Assembly (NCBI GenBank): GCA_963921275.4
Contig: OZ001293.3
Span: forward strand, 992,001 to 1,056,000
Reading direction: 5' to 3'
From: an uncultured Hormoscilla sp.
Lineage (GTDB): Bacteria > Cyanobacteriota > Cyanobacteriia > Cyanobacteriales > Desertifilaceae
DNA: 64,000 nucleotides
Below the pieces are notes generated by a model that saw only the letters and a list, made by a program, of their open reading frames with translations, searched no databases and was not told where the DNA came from. The position numbers and the translations under genes were made by a program. Positions 10,968 to 51,563 of the stretch are shown here, one piece after another (position 1 is the first letter of the stretch; every line of letters starts with the position of its first letter).

Positions 10968-11585
10968 TTATACAATTTTTTGACATGGACGGGCACCGGG
11001 TTTAACAGCATGAACGTACTCGCTACCAGATGCGGGCCATCCCCGTCGGTAAGATGCCTCAGAGGGTTTTCCCCATCCTAGCTGCAAGACCATTTCCAAA
11101 AAATCTGACTTCTCCCATTTCCACAGGTAAGCCCATTCCGTTCTGCGAGCAAGTCCTTCTACCTCCCCAGGGGCGATCGGTCGGTAGTCCTTACCGCTGG
11201 CAACACTCAAATACAATTCCATCCCCAACGTCACCTCTTGCCAGAATGCCAACACTTCCGCCTGATGCGCCTTCAGGATCTCCAGGTCCCTAGAGAGAGC
11301 GATCAGCTGCTCGTGGACTACTGGATAATGGAGAATCTTACCCTTAACTTGCAGGTGACGCCAGACAATACCCGAGACTTGCCGTTTCCTCTGGTAGCGG
11401 TGAACCGTCGCCTTAAAATCTTGATAGGCCGTAAACTTTTGCAGCCCCTCAACGTTCAGCAAGCAGTCGATCGCAGGATTGCCAGACGCTTTGGCCTTAA
11501 GATTGAGGCGCTCTCCCTTTATGCAAGCTTGGCGCTCCGAGGTCAATATTTCGATTAACTCCTCAGTACTGTAGACCTGTGACAT
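10968..11585 (-). CDS. Conserved cyanobacterial hypothetical protein
   Basis: 205-aa ORF (YSTEELIEIL..ERQAC...QLGWG...GSEYVHA). Confidence 0.7.
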   Translation of the reverse strand: MSQVYSTEELIEILTSERQACIKGERLNLKAKASGNPAIDCLLNVEGLQKFTAYQDFKATVHRYQRKRQVSGIVWRHLQVKGKILHYPVVHEQLIALSRDLEILKAHQAEVLAFWQEVTLGMELYLSVASGKDYRPIAPGEVEGLARRTEWAYLWKWEKSDFLEMVLQLGWGKPSEASYRRGWPASGSEYVHAVKPGARPCQKIV

Positions 11586-12162
11586 GACCCTCAGCCCATC
11601 AGTCTCTTCCTTCAGTTTAACGCGAGTAGTCTGTTAAGGCAAGCTTCTATAGCGGTTCCTTAAGAGTGCCCGTCATGCCTTCGGGCGATCACCTTTTTGC
11701 TGTTCTGGTAGTTCTGCTCGTGAGGAAAATCCTGATCAGCATACCGCTCCGGTCAGGATTGGTTCTTTCGTGAAAAATCCTATTTAGCTTATCATATCCT
11801 GGACCCTAATGACAAGAGGCTAGTGCCAGCGATCGGCGAGCGGTTACCAGTACCAGTCCGATACCAGTGCTATGAGATCGGTTCGAGATGTCCAAGAGCA
11901 TCTTTTTTCTGTTCCGTCGGCCTGTTTTGCCGTGCTTGTGGTACTTTCTCTCTACATCTCCCGTTGATTTATGGCTAGCGATCGGGCCTGTCCGACTCTT
12001 TTTCTAACCGGTTTGCTGACCTGCTCTAGCTCTTCTTGCCCACGGGAATGAAAGGCGATCGGGTTGCGGATGCCTTTAGTTAAGAAACCAGTTTAATCCT
12101 ATAAAACCAGTTTTTCAGTTTAGAACTTTTTCTCAAGAAAATTAGATTTTTTTGAAAATGGC

Positions 12163-12191
12163 TTGAAACAAATATCATTCGATGCTATAAT
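12163..12191 (+). promoter_or_regulatory. Consensus-like sigma70 promoter with extended -10
   Basis: TTGAAA-N17-TATAAT, with TG just upstream of the -10 box. Confidence 0.5.
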
Positions 12192-12531
12192 TATGGAGGA
12201 TGTGGGAGGGAAATTTATAGATAATTGAATTTTTTAAAAGAATTACAGCGAAGGTAGCGTTCGCTGTTAACAGTAGCATTTCAATTTGGAATCATCAACA
12301 TGTTTTTTGGGGAAAAAACATAACTGTTGATCTTCTGAAATGGATTATTGGGAGAGTGTTCGCCGAGATATCTGTTCGGTCGATTTCCCAGTGTAGCCCT
12401 TCACTTCTAGTAAAACATCAGGCTTGAAATAACCGAGCCTTTGGTAGTTAACATCGTAACAAGACCCCTCTTCTATCTCTTTATTCAAGACTGGACAAAA
12501 CCAGTCAGTATCTTCTTTTTTCGGAGTGAGG

Positions 12532-12828
12532 TCTGTGTCCCCCCTTTTGTGCGGTTACGATGTCTCGGCGATGTGCGATTAATGTGCTCTGCGCAGTGCG
12601 AATAGCGCGCGCAGAGCACATTAGGCAGTGCGAATACGATGTCCCTCGGGTAGTGCGAATACGATGTCCTCCGGGTAGTGCGATTAGCGCTTCCGGAGGA
12701 CATCGAGCTCCCGAGGGACATTGAACGCGCAGAGCACATCGGGGGTAGTGCGACTATGATGTCCCGTGCGTCCGGGGGACATCAAGCGTCCCCTGGAGGG
12801 GGGACATCGAGCTCCCGGGGGACACAGA
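12532..12828. repeat. Multi-layer nest of hairpin micro-elements
   Basis: Outer inverted repeat TCTGTGTCCCCC/GGGGGACACAGA encloses several CGATGTCC...GGACATCG units with TAGTGCGA(A/T)TAGCGC loops. Confidence 0.85.
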
Positions 12829-12901
12829 AGTGGTAGCTTGCGTTCGGATGCACCCCAAATCATCCTCTGATTGTGCAACGCCTTACTTTTTACTCGATCG
12901 G

Positions 12902-13474
12902 CTATTGAGTCAACTCCACATTGATTTCATTCACCGGTCGCCGCCTCAACTCGACCGATTCCGATCGGGGTAACAAATCAAACACCTCCCGGAAGGCATC
13001 ATCCACCCGTTCAAAGGGGATATTGCCGCTAGCGTTAAAAACCACCTTACCCGTCTCATCCAGGATCAGAGTTTGAGGCACCAAGCCTTCATAATAATAT
13101 CCCGATTCCGTAGGTTCATAGGTAGATTTGGGCAAGATCGCATCCACATCGATCGGGATCAAATCTGCGGGCACTCCATAAAATGCCTGAAGTTGGGAAA
13201 CCACAGTAGAATATTGCTTGCAGTCGCGGCTGTCATCCACGTAAAACACCAGCAGAATGGGTCGATCGCGCTTCAGAGCTTGTGCCAATGTCACTTTCGG
13301 CGGTATCAATGAACCATTACCGCCATAGAGAGCAAAGATATTACCATCAAAGTTATCATCATTAATCCCCGCTAGCGCCGGTGGCATTTCCAGCAGCTGC
13401 ATCCAGCTGAGGGTAACACACAGCATCAACAGGCAGATCCCTGCCAGAGTACGCTCTAATCGACAATCAGTCAT
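12902..13474 (-). CDS. Thioredoxin-like thylakoid protein (photosystem I accumulation factor family)
   Basis: Signal-like N-terminus, then DDNFDGNIFALYGGNGSLIPP...FYVDDSRDCKQY. Start uncertain. Confidence 0.75.
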   Translation of the reverse strand: MTDCRLERTLAGICLLMLCVTLSWMQLLEMPPALAGINDDNFDGNIFALYGGNGSLIPPKVTLAQALKRDRPILLVFYVDDSRDCKQYSTVVSQLQAFYGVPADLIPIDVDAILPKSTYEPTESGYYYEGLVPQTLILDETGKVVFNASGNIPFERVDDAFREVFDLLPRSESVELRRRPVNEINVELTQ

Positions 13475-13604
13475 AATAGTTGAGATTTGAAACCGTAATA
13501 GTGAGCAGTGACCAGGCCGAGTGACCAGTACCGTGACGCTGACAACTGATAACTGACTACTGACCACTTACAATTTACAACTGACCGCTTACAACTGACA
13601 ACCC

Positions 13605-14003
13605 ATGAATCAAAATGAGATTATCACTCTTGGGGCCACTCGGCACCCGCTCGATCGAAAACTCTTAAAAACCTCCAACTCCAATCAGATTGAGCGAATT
13701 TGGTATCAGGGGGAAGAGCCTTATTTTGACGTGTTTTTTGATTTCCTCGAAGATGAAGTCATCTGGTTTCAGTTTACCTTGCTAGGTCAATGTATTACCT
13801 GGCATAAAAAACCACCCCGACTAGAAACAGGTTTAACTTTTGAAAATCAAACAGCCGCATCTAAACATCCTGCTAGTAAAATAATCCACTCCGAAAACAA
13901 ACTCGACGGCAATTTCCTTGACATCGTCCAGGCAATTATGCAAATTAGAGCCAGTGAATTTCCCTTCGACCGAGCCATCGCTATCCTCAAAAATTATCGC
14001 TAA
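13605..14003 (+). CDS. Conserved hypothetical protein
   Basis: 132-aa ORF with a RIWYQGEEPYFDVF motif. Confidence 0.7.
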   Translation: MNQNEIITLGATRHPLDRKLLKTSNSNQIERIWYQGEEPYFDVFFDFLEDEVIWFQFTLLGQCITWHKKPPRLETGLTFENQTAASKHPASKIIHSENKLDGNFLDIVQAIMQIRASEFPFDRAIAILKNYR

Positions 14004-16040: not shown

Positions 16041-18429
16041 ATTAAACTAAGCCAGAGGGTCACCCCTCCGACTCGTCTCCAAAACCGGACTTGATACTTT
16101 CGCATCATCCGGCTCCTCAGTAACGCCACCCTTGTCATGGGTACGGCTGTGACTACCATCGCTGGCAGTCTTTATATCGTGGCAATGTTTGTGTAGTAAC
16201 TGTAGGTTGTCGTACTAGTTTTTACCCCCTAATGAGAGGGGCTTGATATGGTCAACTTCCCACTTGTCACCATCCATAAACGTTAATCCGCATTGTTGGC
16301 ACTTTCCTTTTTGTCTCTTGAGTAGCGTTGCTACCCTCTTATTTAGCTCGGGGCTTTTGCCTAATCTCGTACTCCAATATGTAAGGTTCCCGTCATATGG
16401 GCTTGCTGTACCTTTCACTTTTATGTGCCTGATTATCTCAGTTTCGGAGTGTCTGTACAGCGTTATTTCTTCCTCTCCTATTTGGCACCGGAATCGCCAT
16501 TTACCGTCCTCACTCAGGGACCAGTACTTACGAGCTATCCAATGACTGGATTTATTGGGATGTCTCCTTTTTGCCCACTGCCAGAGAATGGTCCATAGGT
16601 AGTGGTCCATGTAGCTGTATGTTTCTTTACTTACCACTGTCCTATAATAGTTTGACCATCCCCGTATTATCGGGTTTAGCTTACTTATTAAGGCTGCTTG
16701 TGGTGCTGCTTTATGGCTGGCCACCATTTCTGATAGCCGTTCTTTATGCTTCCCTATGGACTTATTACTGGGTTTGATTAGGGTTTTGAATCCTAGGGGT
16801 GTTCCGTTGGTTGACTTGCCGGTTCTGTATTTACCTATCTCATATTGCCTTACTTTGAAACCCAGGAAGTCAAACCCCGGGCTTTCTCCTTTTAGCGTAT
16901 GAGCTATTTTTGTCTTCTCGGCTTTCAATTCTAGCCCTATTCCCTTTAGCCATTCTGCCACCACTATCTGCGCTCTGTCTATCATTCCCCTATCTTCATG
17001 CATTACCACAAAGTCATCAGCATACCTGACTACTGTCAGCTTTTGCTTTTCTTTTTGTGTCCTGGCGAGTTCCTTTACTGCCTCCTCTAGTCCATGTAGG
17101 GCTATGTTGGCTAGTAGTGGTGATATGACTCCCCCTTGGGGTGTTCCCGCTTCGGTTGCATGCCATTCTCCTTTGTCTATCACCCCGGCTTTTAACCATG
17201 CCCGTATCTGCTTACGGATTGGTGACGTTGTATTTAATTTTTTTATTAGCGCTTTGTGGTCAATCTTATCGAAACATTTTGCAATATCGGCATCCAATAC
17301 CCACTTGGGTTTATATCTGATGCTGTTAAATATTGCCTTGATTGCATCGTGGCATCCCCGACCCGGTCTGAATCCATAGGAGTTCCCTTCCATGTACGCT
17401 TCCCATTCGGGTTCGAGCGCAATCTTGAAAAGTCCCTGTGTCGCACGGTCGTACATCGTTGGTATTCCTAAAGGACGCTTCTCCTCTCTCCCCGGCTTTG
17501 GTATCCATACACGACGTGTAGGTTTGGCCTTGTTTGAGATTTCAATCCGTCCTACCAGTTCTGAGCGTTGCTTTGGGGTCAGTGCTTTTACACCGTCCAC
17601 TCCCGCCGTCTTCTTTCCCTGGTTGTCTTGAGTTACCTGTCGTACCGCTAGACTTTTGGCAGCCCGGGATTTTACCAGTAACCTTTGGAGTCTGCGAACT
17701 GGTCGCTTATTACGCCTTCCATTGCCGCTCTGTAAATTCGCTTTTGCAACTTAAAGACTACCCGCTCCAGCCGAGGCCAGGGGGTATCCTTCCATTCATT
17801 CATCGATTCGGAAATCGTGCTCATGACCTGTGTATTGCTACTTACAACTTTACAATTAACGTTACCGTGAGGGCGTCTGCATATCCTATCCATTACAGAC
17901 AGGCGTTGGCTTCTCCTCAAAATCTTTCCCAGATACAACCTGCCTTCCGAAGAGCAGATGTTGCGCCTGTGGTGGCTACTCAACCTATCGACCGGTGGTT
18001 GAGAGTATGTACCTGGTTTACTTCGTTCCTCTAGATGATTGGTCGTAGTTTTAGGTGGACTCTATATGCCGGGTTTGTTGTCAGTGCTTATTGGTCGAAT
18101 TACAACCGCCAATGACCTGTATCCTTTCCCTTTTGGGCCAGCGTATCAGCCTTTTCGCTGGTTTGGTATAACGACACTTATGAGCCTTTGCTTTTGCTCA
18201 CCATGACTACTTGCTTGACGGTAACCGGTTTAAGCTGCCAGTTATTGCGCCTTCTCTCCCGCTTTACGGATTGATGCCATCGCTACCGTCGGAAGAGTGC
18301 TGTCACTCCTGCACCTGGAGGGGTGGGCTTTCACCACCATCATCTAAAAGTTGTCAGGGCTAATGGAACCCTGCTAGTGGTCCCCTTTCTTGACCTGTGT
18401 CAAGTCAGTTTACAATAAACAAATCGCAC
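16041..18429 (-). mobile_element. Full-length RT-encoding group II intron (~2.39 kb)
   Basis: 5' GTGCG at 18429. DV GAGCCGGATGATGCGAAAGTATCAAGTCCGGTT and 3' end ...TTAGTTTAAT at 16041. EBS1 TGTAAT pairs 6/6 with the 5' exon ATTACA. Confidence 0.92.
16130..17825 (-). pseudogene. ltrA: Group II intron reverse transcriptase/maturase with HNH endonuclease, frameshift near 17710 and TAG at 16215
   Basis: GTPQGGVISPLLANI, YADD, X domain, CQQC...VDHI.P...*YDNLQLLHKHCH. Confidence 0.9.
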
Positions 18430-48702: not shown

Positions 48703-51563
48703 ATGGAAGATTTACCCCAGTTAACAGGTCTGGCGACGGTGGTGATGGTAGTGAATGGCGACCCAATAACCATCGAAGTGGACGGCACAAATGCCCCAAT
48801 TACCTCTGGTAACTTTGTCGATCTGGTGGAACGACGGTTTTACAACGACATTTCCTTTCACCGAGTGGTACGGGAACCAACTCCGTTTGTAGTGCAAGCT
48901 GGAGATCCGCAAAGTAAAGACCCGAATTTTCCCCCAGAACTGCTGGGAACAGGCGGTTTTGTTGACCCGGAAATTGGTGAGGAACGGGAGATTCCTTTGG
49001 AAATTAAACCTGTAGGGGCCGCTGAACCGATCTACAGTCAAACTTTCTCTCAGGCGGGAATTACGGCGCCGCCAGTGTTGCCAAATGTTCGCAGTACGAT
49101 CGCGATGGCGCGGGTAGGTGGGATTCCTGATTCAGCGTCGTCCCAGTTATTTATTAATTTGGCAGATAATCCTTTCCTGGACGGGGAATTTGCTGTCTTA
49201 GGAAACGTGACGGCAGGAATGGATGTGTGCGATTCTTTTAGCTTAAAATAACTTGACACAAGTCAAGAAGGGGGACAGCTAACAGGGTCTCATTAGCCCT
49301 GATAACTTATAGATGATGGTGGTGAAAGCCCACCCGTCCAGGTGCAGGACTGAAAGCATAACCCCTACGGTAGCGATGGCATCAATCCGTAAAGCGGGAT
49401 TAAAAGGCGCTCTGACTGGTAGCCTAAACCGGTGATCGCCAAGCAAGTAGTCATGATGAGTGAAAGCAAAGACTCATAAGTGTCGTCACCCAGAACCAGC
49501 GAAAAGGCTGAAACGCTGGCCCAAAAAAAGGGAAAGGATAATGGCCATTGGCGGTTACATTCCCGACCAATAAGCACTGGCAACAAACCCGGCACATAGA
49601 GTCCATCTAAAACTACGATCAATCATCTATGGGAACGAAGTAAACCAGGTATGTACTCTCTATCACCGGTCGATAGATAGAGTAGCCACCAAAGGCGTAA
49701 CATCTGCCTTCCATTAGGGCAGGTCATATTTGGGAAAGATTGAGTGGAGAAGCAAAAGCCTACCGTAATGGGTAGGATAAGCTGACACCCTCACGGTAAT
49801 GTCAAAAGTAGAGTTGCAAATAGCAATGTAAATGTTATAAGCACGATGGGTATATCGATGAATGAATGGGAGAGTATCCCCTGGCGGAAGTTAGAGAGGA
49901 TAGTCTTTAAGTTGCTTCTGAGAATTTACAGAGCGGCACAACGTGGAGATAAGCGGACAGTTCGCAGACTCCAAAGGTTACTGGTAAAATCCCGGGCAGC
50001 CAAAAGTCTAGCGGTACGACAGGTAACACAGGATAACCAGGGAAAGAAAACAGCAGGTGTGGATGGTGTGAAATCACTGACCCCAAAGCAAAGAATGAAA
50101 CTGGTAGGACAAATAGAAATCTCAAACAAGGCCAAACCTGCACGACGAGTGTGGATACCAAAGCAAGGAAGAGACGAAAAACGTCCATTAGGAATACCAA
50201 CAATGTACGACCGTGCGACACAGGGGTTACTAAAAATTGCGCAGTTATCCTGAATGGGAAGCGTATATGGAAGGAAACTCCTACGGATTCAGACCGGGAA
50301 GAGGATGTCATGATGCAATCGAAGCAATATTTCTCAGCATCAAACAAAAATCTAAGTGGGTCTTAGATGCTGATATAGCCAAATGTTTAGATAAAATTGA
50401 CCATAAAGCACTAATGGAAAAACTGAATACAACATCACCAATTCGTAAACAAATACGAGCATGGTTAAAAGCCGGGGTGATAGAGAAGAAAGAATGGTAT
50501 GCAACCGAAGAGGGTACAGGGAGGAGTCATATCACCATTACTAGCGAATATAGTTCTACATGGACTAGAAGAAGCGGTAATGGAACTCGCAGAAACACAA
50601 AGAGAAAGATACAAACTGACAGTAGTCAGATATGCAGATGACTTTGTGGTAATGCATGACGATAGAGAGAAGATAGAACAAGTGCAAGAGGTCATAGCAA
50701 AGTGGCTAAAAGGAATAGGACTAGAACTCAAGCCTGAAAAGACAAAAATATCTCATACGCTAAAAGGAGAAGATCCAGGATTTGACTTCCTAGGATTCAA
50801 CATAAGGCAACATGAGGTAAGTAAGAACAGAAGCGGCAAGAGCAGAAATGGAAAACCCCTAGGCCAAAAAACCCTCATCAAACCCAGTAATAAATCCATA
50901 GGTAAGCACAAAGAAAGGTTAGCAGAAATAGTAAGCAGCCTTAAAGCAGCTCCACAAGCTGCCCTGATAAGCAAACTAAACCCGATAATACGAGGATGGG
51001 CAAACTACTTCAGGACTGGAGTAAGCAAGGAAGTTTACTCAGACATGGACAAATACCTATGGGAAATCCTGTGGAATTGGGCAAAGAGAAGACACCCTAA
51101 CAAATCAAAAGGTTGGATAGCCAAAAAATATTGGTCAATAGACCAAGATGTACAATGGCGATTTCAATGTCAGAGAGAGGAAGGGGATGTAGAACTATAT
51201 CAACACGCGAGTGTAGAGATAGTAAGACATGTGAAAGTTAAAGGAAAAGCCAGTCCATATGACGGGAACCTCACATATTGGAGCACGAGACTAGGCACCG
51301 GGACTGCTGTTTCTCCAGGAAATGTGGATGCTGCCGATCGCATTATTGATTTCAATCCGGGCCAGGGCGATTGGGTGGCGATAGCGGGTTTGAGTAATGC
51401 AAGTAATTTGGAATTTAATGCCTCGGGCAGTGACACGCTAATTCAACTGAGGAATGGGAATATTTTGGGCATTGTCGAAGATACCGCAGCGAACATCGTG
51501 GAGAATGCGACATTCATAGTGAGTGGCCGGGATTTAGGGATGACTATTGGCATCGGTAGGTAG
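48703..51563 (+). pseudogene. Cyclophilin-type PPIase/RTX-like protein, copy 1, disrupted by a group II intron and a deletion
   Basis: 5' part 48703-49226 and 3' part ~51297-51563 match the paralog at 51674-52882. Confidence 0.88.
49227..51296 (+). mobile_element. RT-encoding group II intron, 3'-deleted (no HNH, DV or DVI); RT ORF from 49846 frameshifted
   Basis: GTGCG at 49227. EBS1 ACATTC pairs 6/6 with the 5' exon GGATGT. YADD present. Related to 16041-18429. Confidence 0.9.

Follow-up and report, generated by a model that had tools for sequence, protein, structure and literature searches.

A nest of hairpin repeats between two minus-strand reading frames

We analyzed a 64,000-nucleotide stretch of DNA (hereafter the window; positions 992,001 to 1,056,000 of contig OZ001293.3, assembly GCA_963921275.4) from an uncultured Hormoscilla sp., focusing on a tract of nested hairpin repeats at window positions 12532-12828. 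The tract lies between two co-oriented minus-strand open reading frames (ORFs), one of 221 amino acids (aa) at 12902-13567 and a small one at 12345-12488. It contains seven loop cores and one unit with a truncated loop, that is, about eight copies of one hairpin repeat. Together with the genome-wide and cross-species comparisons reported below, the data show a mobile, self-targeting hairpin family whose copies undergo concerted, template-switch-like reshaping.

A preliminary description of the tract had read it as a Russian-doll nest of four or more layers, with an outer inverted repeat enclosing smaller units. Both points were borne out. The sequence is as quoted there, parsing placed five unit-level stems on the deepest path through the nest (nesting 4-5 deep), and an inverted-repeat search recovered the outer arms (12532-12543 and 12817-12828) as complementary at 12 of 12 positions. 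Folded as DNA, the region 12520-12840 reached -97.8 kcal/mol, compared to -55.5 ± 4.6 kcal/mol in 100 dinucleotide shuffles, none of which was as good (z = -9.3). Folding as RNA gave z-scores of -10.5 for the plus strand and -9.1 for the minus strand, again with no shuffle as good. The minimum-energy structures show the stems nested in the way that the preliminary description had laid out. Rfam covariance models searched against 11500-14000 at E-values up to 1 returned nothing relevant, the sole match being a chance snoRNA hit of 23 bits.

All parts of the nest are given here on the plus strand. The left arm of layer 1, the outermost layer, is TCTGTGTCCCCCC (12532-12544), followed by a linker and loop core, TTTT + GTGCGGTTA (12545-12557), with a 'CTTTT' linker variant that recurs genome-wide; the connector AGCT and the right arm CCCGGGGGACACAGA (12810-12828) close the layer. 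Layer 2 begins directly 3' of the layer-1 core. Its left arm, CGATCTCGG...GGGG, is present here as CGATGTCTCGG...GGGG, with the first part at 12558-12568 and the GGGG at 12742-12745. Between these two parts lies a 173-nt block (12569-12741), which thus interrupts the layer-2 left arm and not its loop. The preliminary description had placed inner units at the loops of outer units, which is not true of this block. The junction of CGATGTCTCGG with CGATGTGCGAT is also found at other loci, and the unsplit form of the arm, CGATGTCTCGGGGG plus loop, is present in relatives (L088). The layer-2 loop core TAGTGCGACTA (12746-12756) is followed directly by a TGATG...CATCA sub-family member (12757-12784) whose loop, GTGCGTCC, is shortened and non-canonical; longer versions of this unit lie at C1:723033 and C1:6575720 of the genome. 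The connector AGCG and the layer-2 right side TCCCCTGGAGGGGGGACATCG come next (12785-12809), and a sub-family with a matching right side occurs at C1:1292579 and C1:6801263.

The 173-nt block is a composite, which we refer to as the Z module. It opens with CGAT-GTGCGATTA and continues with the hairpin ATGTGCTCTGCGC/loop/GCGCAGAGCACAT (12582-12621; 13-bp arms, loop AGTGCGAATAGCGC), whose complementarity extends to 15 of 15 positions when the flanks are included (12580-12594 and 12609-12623). The connector TAGGC and a second loop core, AGTGCGAATA, follow (12622-12636), and a second copy of the right arm, GCGCAGAGCACAT(CG), closes the module at 12727-12741, ending in ...CACATCG. The stem ATGTGCTCTGCGC (12582-12594) therefore has two alternative right arms, 12609-12621 and 12727-12739, each complementary at 13 of 13 positions. 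In this nest, the second loop core hosts two further units, which start directly 3' of it and form a two-layer nest with the canonical junction of class I (see below). The outer of the two, CGATGTCCCTCGGG...CCCGAGGGACATTG (12637-12723), is the next-to-innermost unit (12629-12650 and 12710-12731 are 82% complementary over 22 positions) and carries the left connector TAGTGCGAATA and the right connector AGCT. The innermost is a complete 44-nt unit, CGATGTCCTCCGGG/TAGTGCGATTAGCGCT/TCCGGAGGACATCG (12662-12705), with the canonical loop and arms complementary at 13 of 13 positions (12662-12674 and 12693-12705). The Z module recurs at at least 8 loci in the genome, with differing inner units.

The small ORF at 12345-12488 encodes 47 aa from a TTG start, and its start region is 98% conserved in two sister genomes, G002 and G004. 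Two more minus-strand ORFs, 12485-12739 and 12684-12878, cross the nest and are spurious. Nests such as this one are an assembly hazard and a source of spurious ORFs. Further cores of the hairpin family, belonging to units and nests, lie in the window at about 19002(-), 21744(-), 41068 and 41129(-), and 61505(-).

The repeat unit has a constant loop and covarying arms

The window's own genome (G000) comprises 7.03 Mb in 7 contigs with 47% G+C and is rich in HIP1, with 4754 copies of GCGATCGC, which identifies it as cyanobacterial. One of its contigs, C3 (31,420 bases), has a G+C content of 17.6%, compared to 42-49% for the other six, and may be foreign DNA or an odd replicon. One unit of the family is a hairpin of 44-46 nt with a 14-16-bp stem (left arm approximately CGRTGTCYCCNGRG) and a constant 16-nt loop, TAGTGCGANTAGCGCT. 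The loop can be read as T-AGTGC-GANTA-GCGCT, in which a 5-bp mini-stem AGTGC/GCGCT around GANTA is possible. G000 holds 194 canonical loops, and at 154 of these the flanking 14 + 14 nt form at least 12 of 14 Watson-Crick pairs. Stem pairing at canonical loops was 85%, versus 62% after right arms had been shuffled among units. At the most variable stem position, pair 4, the paired fraction was 0.887 versus 0.326 when shuffled, with TA (66), GC (47) and CG (39) as pairs.

An independent alignment of 64 units from the four sister genomes gave the same picture, with 92.6% paired cells versus 80.2% after shuffling. Double-changed cells numbered 138 versus 39 in shuffled data (a value reached by 0 of 500 shuffles), and all 11 variable pairs were double-changed; the three top pairs and the loop are invariant in this alignment only because the search pattern fixed them. 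Non-Watson-Crick intermediates of the G-T/T-G type (56) and of the A-C/C-A type (50; both summed per-pair counts) were equally common; no single transcribed strand is favored.

The family is found in one genus among the genomes searched

The exact loop-plus-stem-top word occurs in at least 74 stretches of a species-level genome collection, and among the matches listed, all come from metagenome-assembled genomes of Hormoscilla sp. When 41 relatives were scanned, a 19-base version of this word was present in 5 of 5 genomes of the window's genus (89 copies in G000, 19-48 in each of the others) and in 0 of the 36 other relatives; the reversed control gave 0. A 13-base loop word has 235 copies in G000 and 0-2 copies per genome in 400 other genomes of the phylum, which is the level of the reversed control. 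A covariance model of the unit had no match at E-values up to 0.001 in 120 other genomes of the order, under stricter filters and with 46 candidates scored per genome. Among the genomes searched, which include about 500 other cyanobacteria, the hairpin family was found only in the window's genus.

Inner units occupy fixed positions in host units

We parsed G000 with a strict procedure that required an 11-nt arm adjoining a core and its reverse complement within 900 nt, with at most one mismatch. This yielded 569 paired units at 470 root sites, with 12 crossing pairs. Most roots are solo units (401), and the remaining 69 are nests, which reach depth 2 at 49 sites, depth 3 at 16 and depth 4 at 4. 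The position of inner units within their hosts is non-random across the genome: 57 of 99 start directly 3' of the host loop word GTGCNNNTA (class I), and 15 of 99 follow the next GC(GC) of the host loop (class II). For most of the other 26 inner units, by our reading, a string starting with CGATG or GCGC lies between the unit and the host core. These strings look like intermediate units, starting at one of the two positions above, that the strict parser missed.

In 69 cleanly parsed pairs, the class-I junction has a host sequence ending in ...GTGCGANTA, then the inner unit CGATG...CATCG, then AGCGA (16 cases), AGCT (8 cases) or rarer forms. At the position of this right connector a solo host has GCGCT, so that in class-I nests connectors of 4-6 nt (AGCT or AGCGA) take the place of the host GCGCT. 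The class-II junction reads ...TAGCGC, then GCTGC...GCAGC, then A. Each added layer lengthens the left side by 25 nt and the right side by 18 nt, and the former accounts for a 25-nt tandem period in the nest.

By word counts, another unit begins right after 215 loop cores, and about 404 continue into their own GCGC, i.e., roughly one third of the loops are occupied. By chance, about 600 loops of 16 nt, which make up 0.14% of the genome, would receive about one of some 700 randomly landing units. The preliminary description had proposed that the element prefers its own loop. It does land overwhelmingly in its own copies and at fixed positions. However, the same junction is also found where GTGC lies in a stem arm, in a recurrent module that joins CGATGTGCGATTA to ATGTGCTC..., and since such junctions occur in stem arms too, insertion seems to be guided by a sequence word or by homology, and not by the geometry of the loop alone.

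Hairpin orientation is balanced (227 plus versus 242 minus), with no switch along the chromosome and no replication-strand bias. Of 469 roots, 130 lie inside open frames of at least 150 codons (unverified frames), and their lengths are not multiples of three (25 of 130).

Whole hairpins come and go between sister species

Loci of the family in relatives, the four sister genomes of the genus being G001-G004, were mapped back on G000 (successfully for 45 of 74, 12 of 28 and 12 of 30 loci); a gap scan against G000 yielded 14 further differences. The orthologous spacers of G002, G003 and G004 do not contain the nest. In G003, the site is nearly empty, and the sequences on its two sides can be aligned through the point of insertion. 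In G001, synteny is broken except for the right flank, which no unit adjoins. Judged from these orthologous sequences, the comparison shows that the nest arose in the window's own lineage. The spacers of G002 and G004 (L077, L078) carry one and two copies, respectively, of an unrelated hairpin repeat, GTGTTTACTACAAAC.GTGCCCCT..AGGGGCAC.GGGAAACACTGAA; with the nest in G000 and another repeat in these two genomes, the spacer is a hotspot where repeats of several families settle.

Many orthologous units persist in both of the genomes compared. We found nine clean cases of presence versus absence of a whole hairpin of 43-47 nt: L009, L021 (44 nt), L034 (44 nt), L040 (43 nt), L048/L072 (45 nt), L069 (46 nt), L093 (45 nt, only in G000), L132 (47 nt) and L134 (45 nt). 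None of the nine has a flanking direct repeat. Four further cases (L027, L037, L067, L120) are messier. These comparisons show units coming and going between species as whole hairpins without target-site duplication. Solo units sit in unrelated sequences that share no common target word. GATG lies directly 3' of the insertion in L134, L120 and L048, CATC lies 5' in L093, and TCG was seen in L132. By our reading, 5 of about 11 solo insertion sites share 3-4 nt with the ends of the element, which in these few cases would point to microhomology.

Nest depth at orthologous loci, which the preliminary description had suggested comparing, also differs among sister species, beyond the absence of the nest itself. 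At L099, a solo unit in G000 corresponds to a unit with one extra layer in G003, and at L113/L059, an intact loop in G000 corresponds to three added layers in G004. The same host unit contains a different inner unit at L088/L106, and a solo unit corresponds to a class-II nest at L033. A three-layer nest with identical architecture is present in G000, G002 and G004 (L094/L097/L098/L101), and because these are independent assemblies, nests as such are not artefacts.

Orthologous copies differ in their details as well. Loops are inverted between orthologues at L024 and L031/L042, and the linkers GGGTAG and CTTTTG are exchanged at L001, L024 and L049/L057. At one orthologous junction (L094/L098 versus G000) the right connectors GAGCGA, TCCCGA, GAGCTC and GAGATC replace one another. 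A compensatory change from T:A to G:C separates orthologues whose flanks are 98-99% identical (L073 versus G000). At L113, one left unit was copied over its neighbor and the right partners were not homogenized. These cases show continual remodelling of the copies: The two arms are altered in concert, loops are turned around, and whole blocks of linker or connector sequence are exchanged.

Search for a mobilizing activity

We searched G000 for genes and parent elements that could move the units. PF01797 (Y1, RAYT-like) has two matches, the better one scoring 69 bits in an open frame of 206 aa. The locus of this RAYT-like gene (G000:C1:241345-243600, L085; Y1 gene at 241795-242139) is flanked on both sides by REP arrays of the GTAG+CCCGCGCAGGCGGGCTTTG type, and this GTAG-tagged REP is also scattered near many hairpin sites and in relatives. 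We rejected the RAYT as mobilizer, as the GTAG repeat on either side of its gene (GTAG+CCCGCGCAGGCGGG...) differs in sequence from the hairpin units. GIY-YIG has two matches as well, one in an open frame of 672 aa, which we take to be UvrC-like, and one in a broken small gene. A GIY-YIG nuclease was set aside as a candidate since neither match is near a unit.

A parent element with terminal repeats was not found: The 19 arm pairs that enclose 250-6000 nt are two separate hairpins or an intron, with no transposase. The units also differ from miniature inverted-repeat transposable elements in that the nine clean insertions have no flanking direct repeats and the search for enclosing arm pairs revealed no parent insertion sequence sharing terminal repeats with them. 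The preliminary description had argued against ordinary transposition; the lack of target duplication, parent element and neighboring transposase suggests this but does not prove it.

Two further explanations for the insertion unit were discarded. One has the loop as the mobile part and the arms as a pre-existing palindrome; loop-less arm palindromes are rare, with 8 arm-like cases among 362 perfect palindromes of at least 16 nt. These fall in sub-families whose inner arm is itself palindromic, which gives them the look of deletion derivatives. Among long perfect palindromes, TCAAGAATATATTCTTGA (18 nt) is the most frequent by a wide margin, with 82 copies on contig C1 of G000. Insertion into HIP1, as for SDR5 (see below), does not apply either, as the clean solo empty sites that we inspected are not HIP1 sites.

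G000 is also rich in group II introns. The 16-base intron 5' end GTGCGATTCGTTCTAG has 252 exact copies and 348 copies with up to 2 mismatches. The introns fall into two main sub-families of 151 and 91 members, and most copies appear to lack an ORF. Of the 87 RVT_1 matches, many belong to open frames of 480-609 aa. RF00029 was matched too, with scores that exceed the gathering threshold. The intron load of G000 may be among the highest of any bacterial genome. The window itself has intron 5' ends at about 3424(-), 37641(-) and 45154(-). It also has a match to a reverse transcriptase (RT) domain at 16851-17504(-), and fragmentary RT sequence lies at 50252-50804(+).

Three of the 91 introns of sub-family B lie in hairpin loops, directly after TAGTGCG (C1:949413(+), 1123598(-) and 2518774(+)); the site at 2518774 is uninterrupted in sister genomes. 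Introns of this sub-family use AGTGYR as 5' exon, and TAGTGCG resembles the usual 5' exon AGTGYA. We read the introns in hairpin loops as probable target mimicry and not as the origin of the hairpins. A group II intron origin of the loop word GTGCG was likewise rejected, with only 3 of 91 sub-family-B introns in loops.

Comparison with known small repeats and mobile elements

SDR1-8, the small dispersed repeats (SDRs) of Nostoc punctiforme and relatives, were reportedly described by Elhai et al. in 2008 with a unit of 21-27 nt, and the abstract of that work is said to have argued for RNA intermediates. According to two later papers, the insertion point of SDR5 within HIP1 lies between nucleotides 3 and 4, and repeats resembling SDRs had not been reported from outside Nostocaceae (PMC5861425, PMC4390886). 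Our family resembles SDRs in several respects. Both are very small dispersed cyanobacterial repeats that form hairpins with compensatory changes (here the excess of double-changed cells), and both have copies nested in their own copies at a fixed point (here 69 of 470 roots, with 57 + 15 of 99 inner units at the two fixed positions). Both have precise insertion points, with some copies in heptamer tandem repeats (here C1:279048, of the ACTGACA type), and both have a link to HIP1: In our family, the arms of one sub-family make up a HIP1-containing palindrome that is split, as in L137 (CGATGTGCGATCGCACATCG). For neither is a mobilizing enzyme known. Unlike SDRs, with their reported 21-27 nt, our units measure 44-46 nt (43-47 nt for those gained or lost), the host does not belong to Nostocaceae, and the loop word stays at background level (0-2 copies) in 400 other genomes of the phylum; we set the family apart from SDR1-8 on these grounds. 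In our assessment SDR elements are the closest described system, with which the hairpin family shares behavior but not size or host lineage.

At the orthologue of L063 (G000:C1, 5697213-5697327), a different, GC-rich element of 24 nt, TCGCGCAGCGTGCGCGCAGCGCAT, sits in a hairpin loop after TAGTGCGA. Its insertion creates a HIP1 site, similar strings occur at other loci, and it may represent a second SDR-like family.

To our knowledge, self-nesting is not a described property of REP elements. In other respects, the family resembles REP/BIME and REPIN (PMC3733652): It consists of short extragenic palindromes in hundreds of copies, without target duplication, in a genome with a RAYT-like gene. The unit also contains a GTAG, at the arm/loop junction GGGTAGTGCG. 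In REP, a GTAG or CGTC tag marks the foot of a 20-40-nt palindrome; the GTAG of our units has a different place in the hairpin, and the CTTTT linker variant lacks it. The REPIN-RAYT arrangement differs further, in that the RAYT-like gene of G000 is flanked by a different repeat and the nearest hairpin root is 3.5 kb away.

Two more comparisons concern the mode of movement. Elements of the IS200/IS605 group transpose as single strands, depend on hairpins and insert 3' of a short fixed word without target duplication. Insertion of our units 3' of a fixed word inside host units, without target duplication, is reminiscent of this. In contrast to IS200/IS605, solo units share no target word, 44 nt are too short for two distinct end hairpins, no tnpA adjoins any unit, and the balanced orientation reveals no replication-strand bias. 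Quasipalindrome template-switch mutagenesis, described in E. coli, explains how imperfect palindromes undergo correction of one arm by the other, inversion of the loop and replacement of blocks. It is a mutational process and not a mobile element, and on its own it places no hairpin into unique DNA.

Searches by topic and by sequence word, which covered the main texts in a limited collection of papers, found no published account of these repeats. The main text of a comparative-genomics paper on Hormoscilla (PMC6520454) contains none of the strings 'intron', 'transposase', 'mobile' and 'palindrom', and its three occurrences of 'repeat' concern 'repeated attempts' and protein repeats.

Discussion

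We favor, with moderate confidence, the explanation that the tract is a pile-up of non-coding, non-autonomous, genus-restricted hairpin micro-repeats, assembled as whole single-stranded hairpins entered resident loops and subsequently remodelled. In this model, a resident palindrome would be extruded as a hairpin, and another whole hairpin would enter it as single-stranded DNA. The loop of the extruded hairpin would be the only part of the family that is both single-stranded and constant in sequence, and the family would thereby become its own best target. The inserting activity would act in trans, and its gene would not adjoin the repeats. Once a hairpin is in place, template switches during replication, inside one hairpin or from one to another, could keep the arms complementary and shuffle the junctions, and repeated rounds of insertion would build nests. 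The element is most likely selfish.

Several observations weigh against this explanation. Our Y1, GIY-YIG and terminal-repeat searches identified no enzyme linked to the repeats, and no hairpin root lies within 3.5 kb of the Y1 or GIY-YIG genes (median root spacing is 9 kb). Among compact units, 249 of 267 sequences are distinct and only 5 identical pairs have unrelated flanks; such a scarcity of identical copies is unusual for copy-and-paste transposition. The hairpin that sits recurrently inside an arm, between CGATGTCTCGG and CGATGTGCGAT at about four loci, entered an arm and not a loop. Plain insertion into a loop would leave ...GANTA[unit]GCGCT..., and the right connectors found in nests fall short of this by 1-2 nt and differ in sequence, so more than simple insertion must be involved. 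Recurrent composite modules and the swapping of junction variants at orthologous sites fit homology-based copying equally well. Finally, the presence/absence cases may be gains or precise losses.

The strongest rival is homology-guided copying without a dedicated enzyme, in which one copy is enlarged into a nest from another, through gene conversion or template switching at replication. We regard it as possible, though rather unlikely. A nascent strand that has passed the shared (GGG)TAGTGCGANTA would re-anneal on a copy with an inner unit, copy the unit together with its connector, and switch back at CC(C), a short stretch that the right arms have in common. This would account for a junction that follows a sequence word even in an arm, for the discrete right-connector types (AGCT, AGCGA, TCCCGA, AGAT) that replace one another at orthologous junctions, and for L113, where two adjacent left units were homogenized and their right partners were not. 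The flipping of loops, the replacement of linkers in blocks, the recurrence of composite modules, the scarcity of identical copies, and the 3-4 nt shared with element ends at 5 of about 11 solo sites are consistent with it as well. Homology to the loop word cannot explain solo hairpins with exact boundaries in unrelated unique DNA, however. Copies of the same module contain different inner units, which implies that the site was hit independently, and the return switch would have to operate on only 2-3 nt.

A more novel reading is a class of mobile DNA for which no protein, whether encoded by the element or dedicated to it, would be required: A 44-nt palindrome would spread by replication template switching. 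We offer this alternative tentatively, as one that is probably not correct. The constant loop word would serve as a homing address and the arms would be regenerated from one another; stems could drift freely and yet stay complementary, and the family would become its own preferred target and form nests. In a bolder variant, the copies would be cDNA made by the many group II intron RTs of the genome.

Spread through RNA, with hairpin transcripts copied by a group II intron RT and the cDNA integrated, seems improbable to us. The abundance of introns in G000 speaks for it (252 exact 5' ends, or 348 with up to 2 mismatches, 87 RVT_1 matches, and RF00029 above gathering score), and so do several inserted units that, by our reading, carry 1-2 extra 3' bases, mostly A (CATCG+A, +AA, +TA). 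Yet there is no direct link: Hairpin loops hold just 3 of the 91 introns of sub-family B, and these are inserted at a different point from the units (after TAGTGCG), which fits target mimicry and not co-mobility. The near-equal numbers of G-T/T-G and A-C/C-A intermediates (56 versus 50) are no signature of strand-specific RNA wobble, and the orientation of the hairpins (227 versus 242) is unbiased.

We give very little weight to the idea of a selected structured RNA or DNA element, such as a terminator, an attenuator or a protein-binding array, that was built in place and is not mobile. Strong covariation and a constant loop would suit such an element, as would the location of the nest between two co-oriented minus-strand ORFs and a stem with two alternative partners. 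But three sister species lack the nest in this spacer and two of them have an unrelated repeat there, units are gained or lost at many unrelated sites, and loops flip between orthologues. An assembly artefact, a mis-join of short repeats, is scarcely credible: Highly repetitive, palindromic sequence is hard to assemble, but the contig that holds the tract spans 6.88 Mb, the unique sequences on either side of the tract are conserved in relatives, the arms of each layer match each other yet differ from those of other layers, which collapse or mis-joining would not yield, and a similar three-layer nest is found in three independent assemblies.

How elements of a few dozen bases move is a question that has stood since the SDR description of 2008. 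The genus offers an unusually rich natural experiment to address it: Its units number in the hundreds, the five congeneric genomes differ by at least 9 clean gains or losses and by 4 changes in the depth of nests, the junctions follow a well-defined grammar, and there are visible signs of arm-to-arm correction and loop flipping. The family described here extends self-nesting repeats beyond Nostocaceae, into a lineage known mainly as sponge symbionts.

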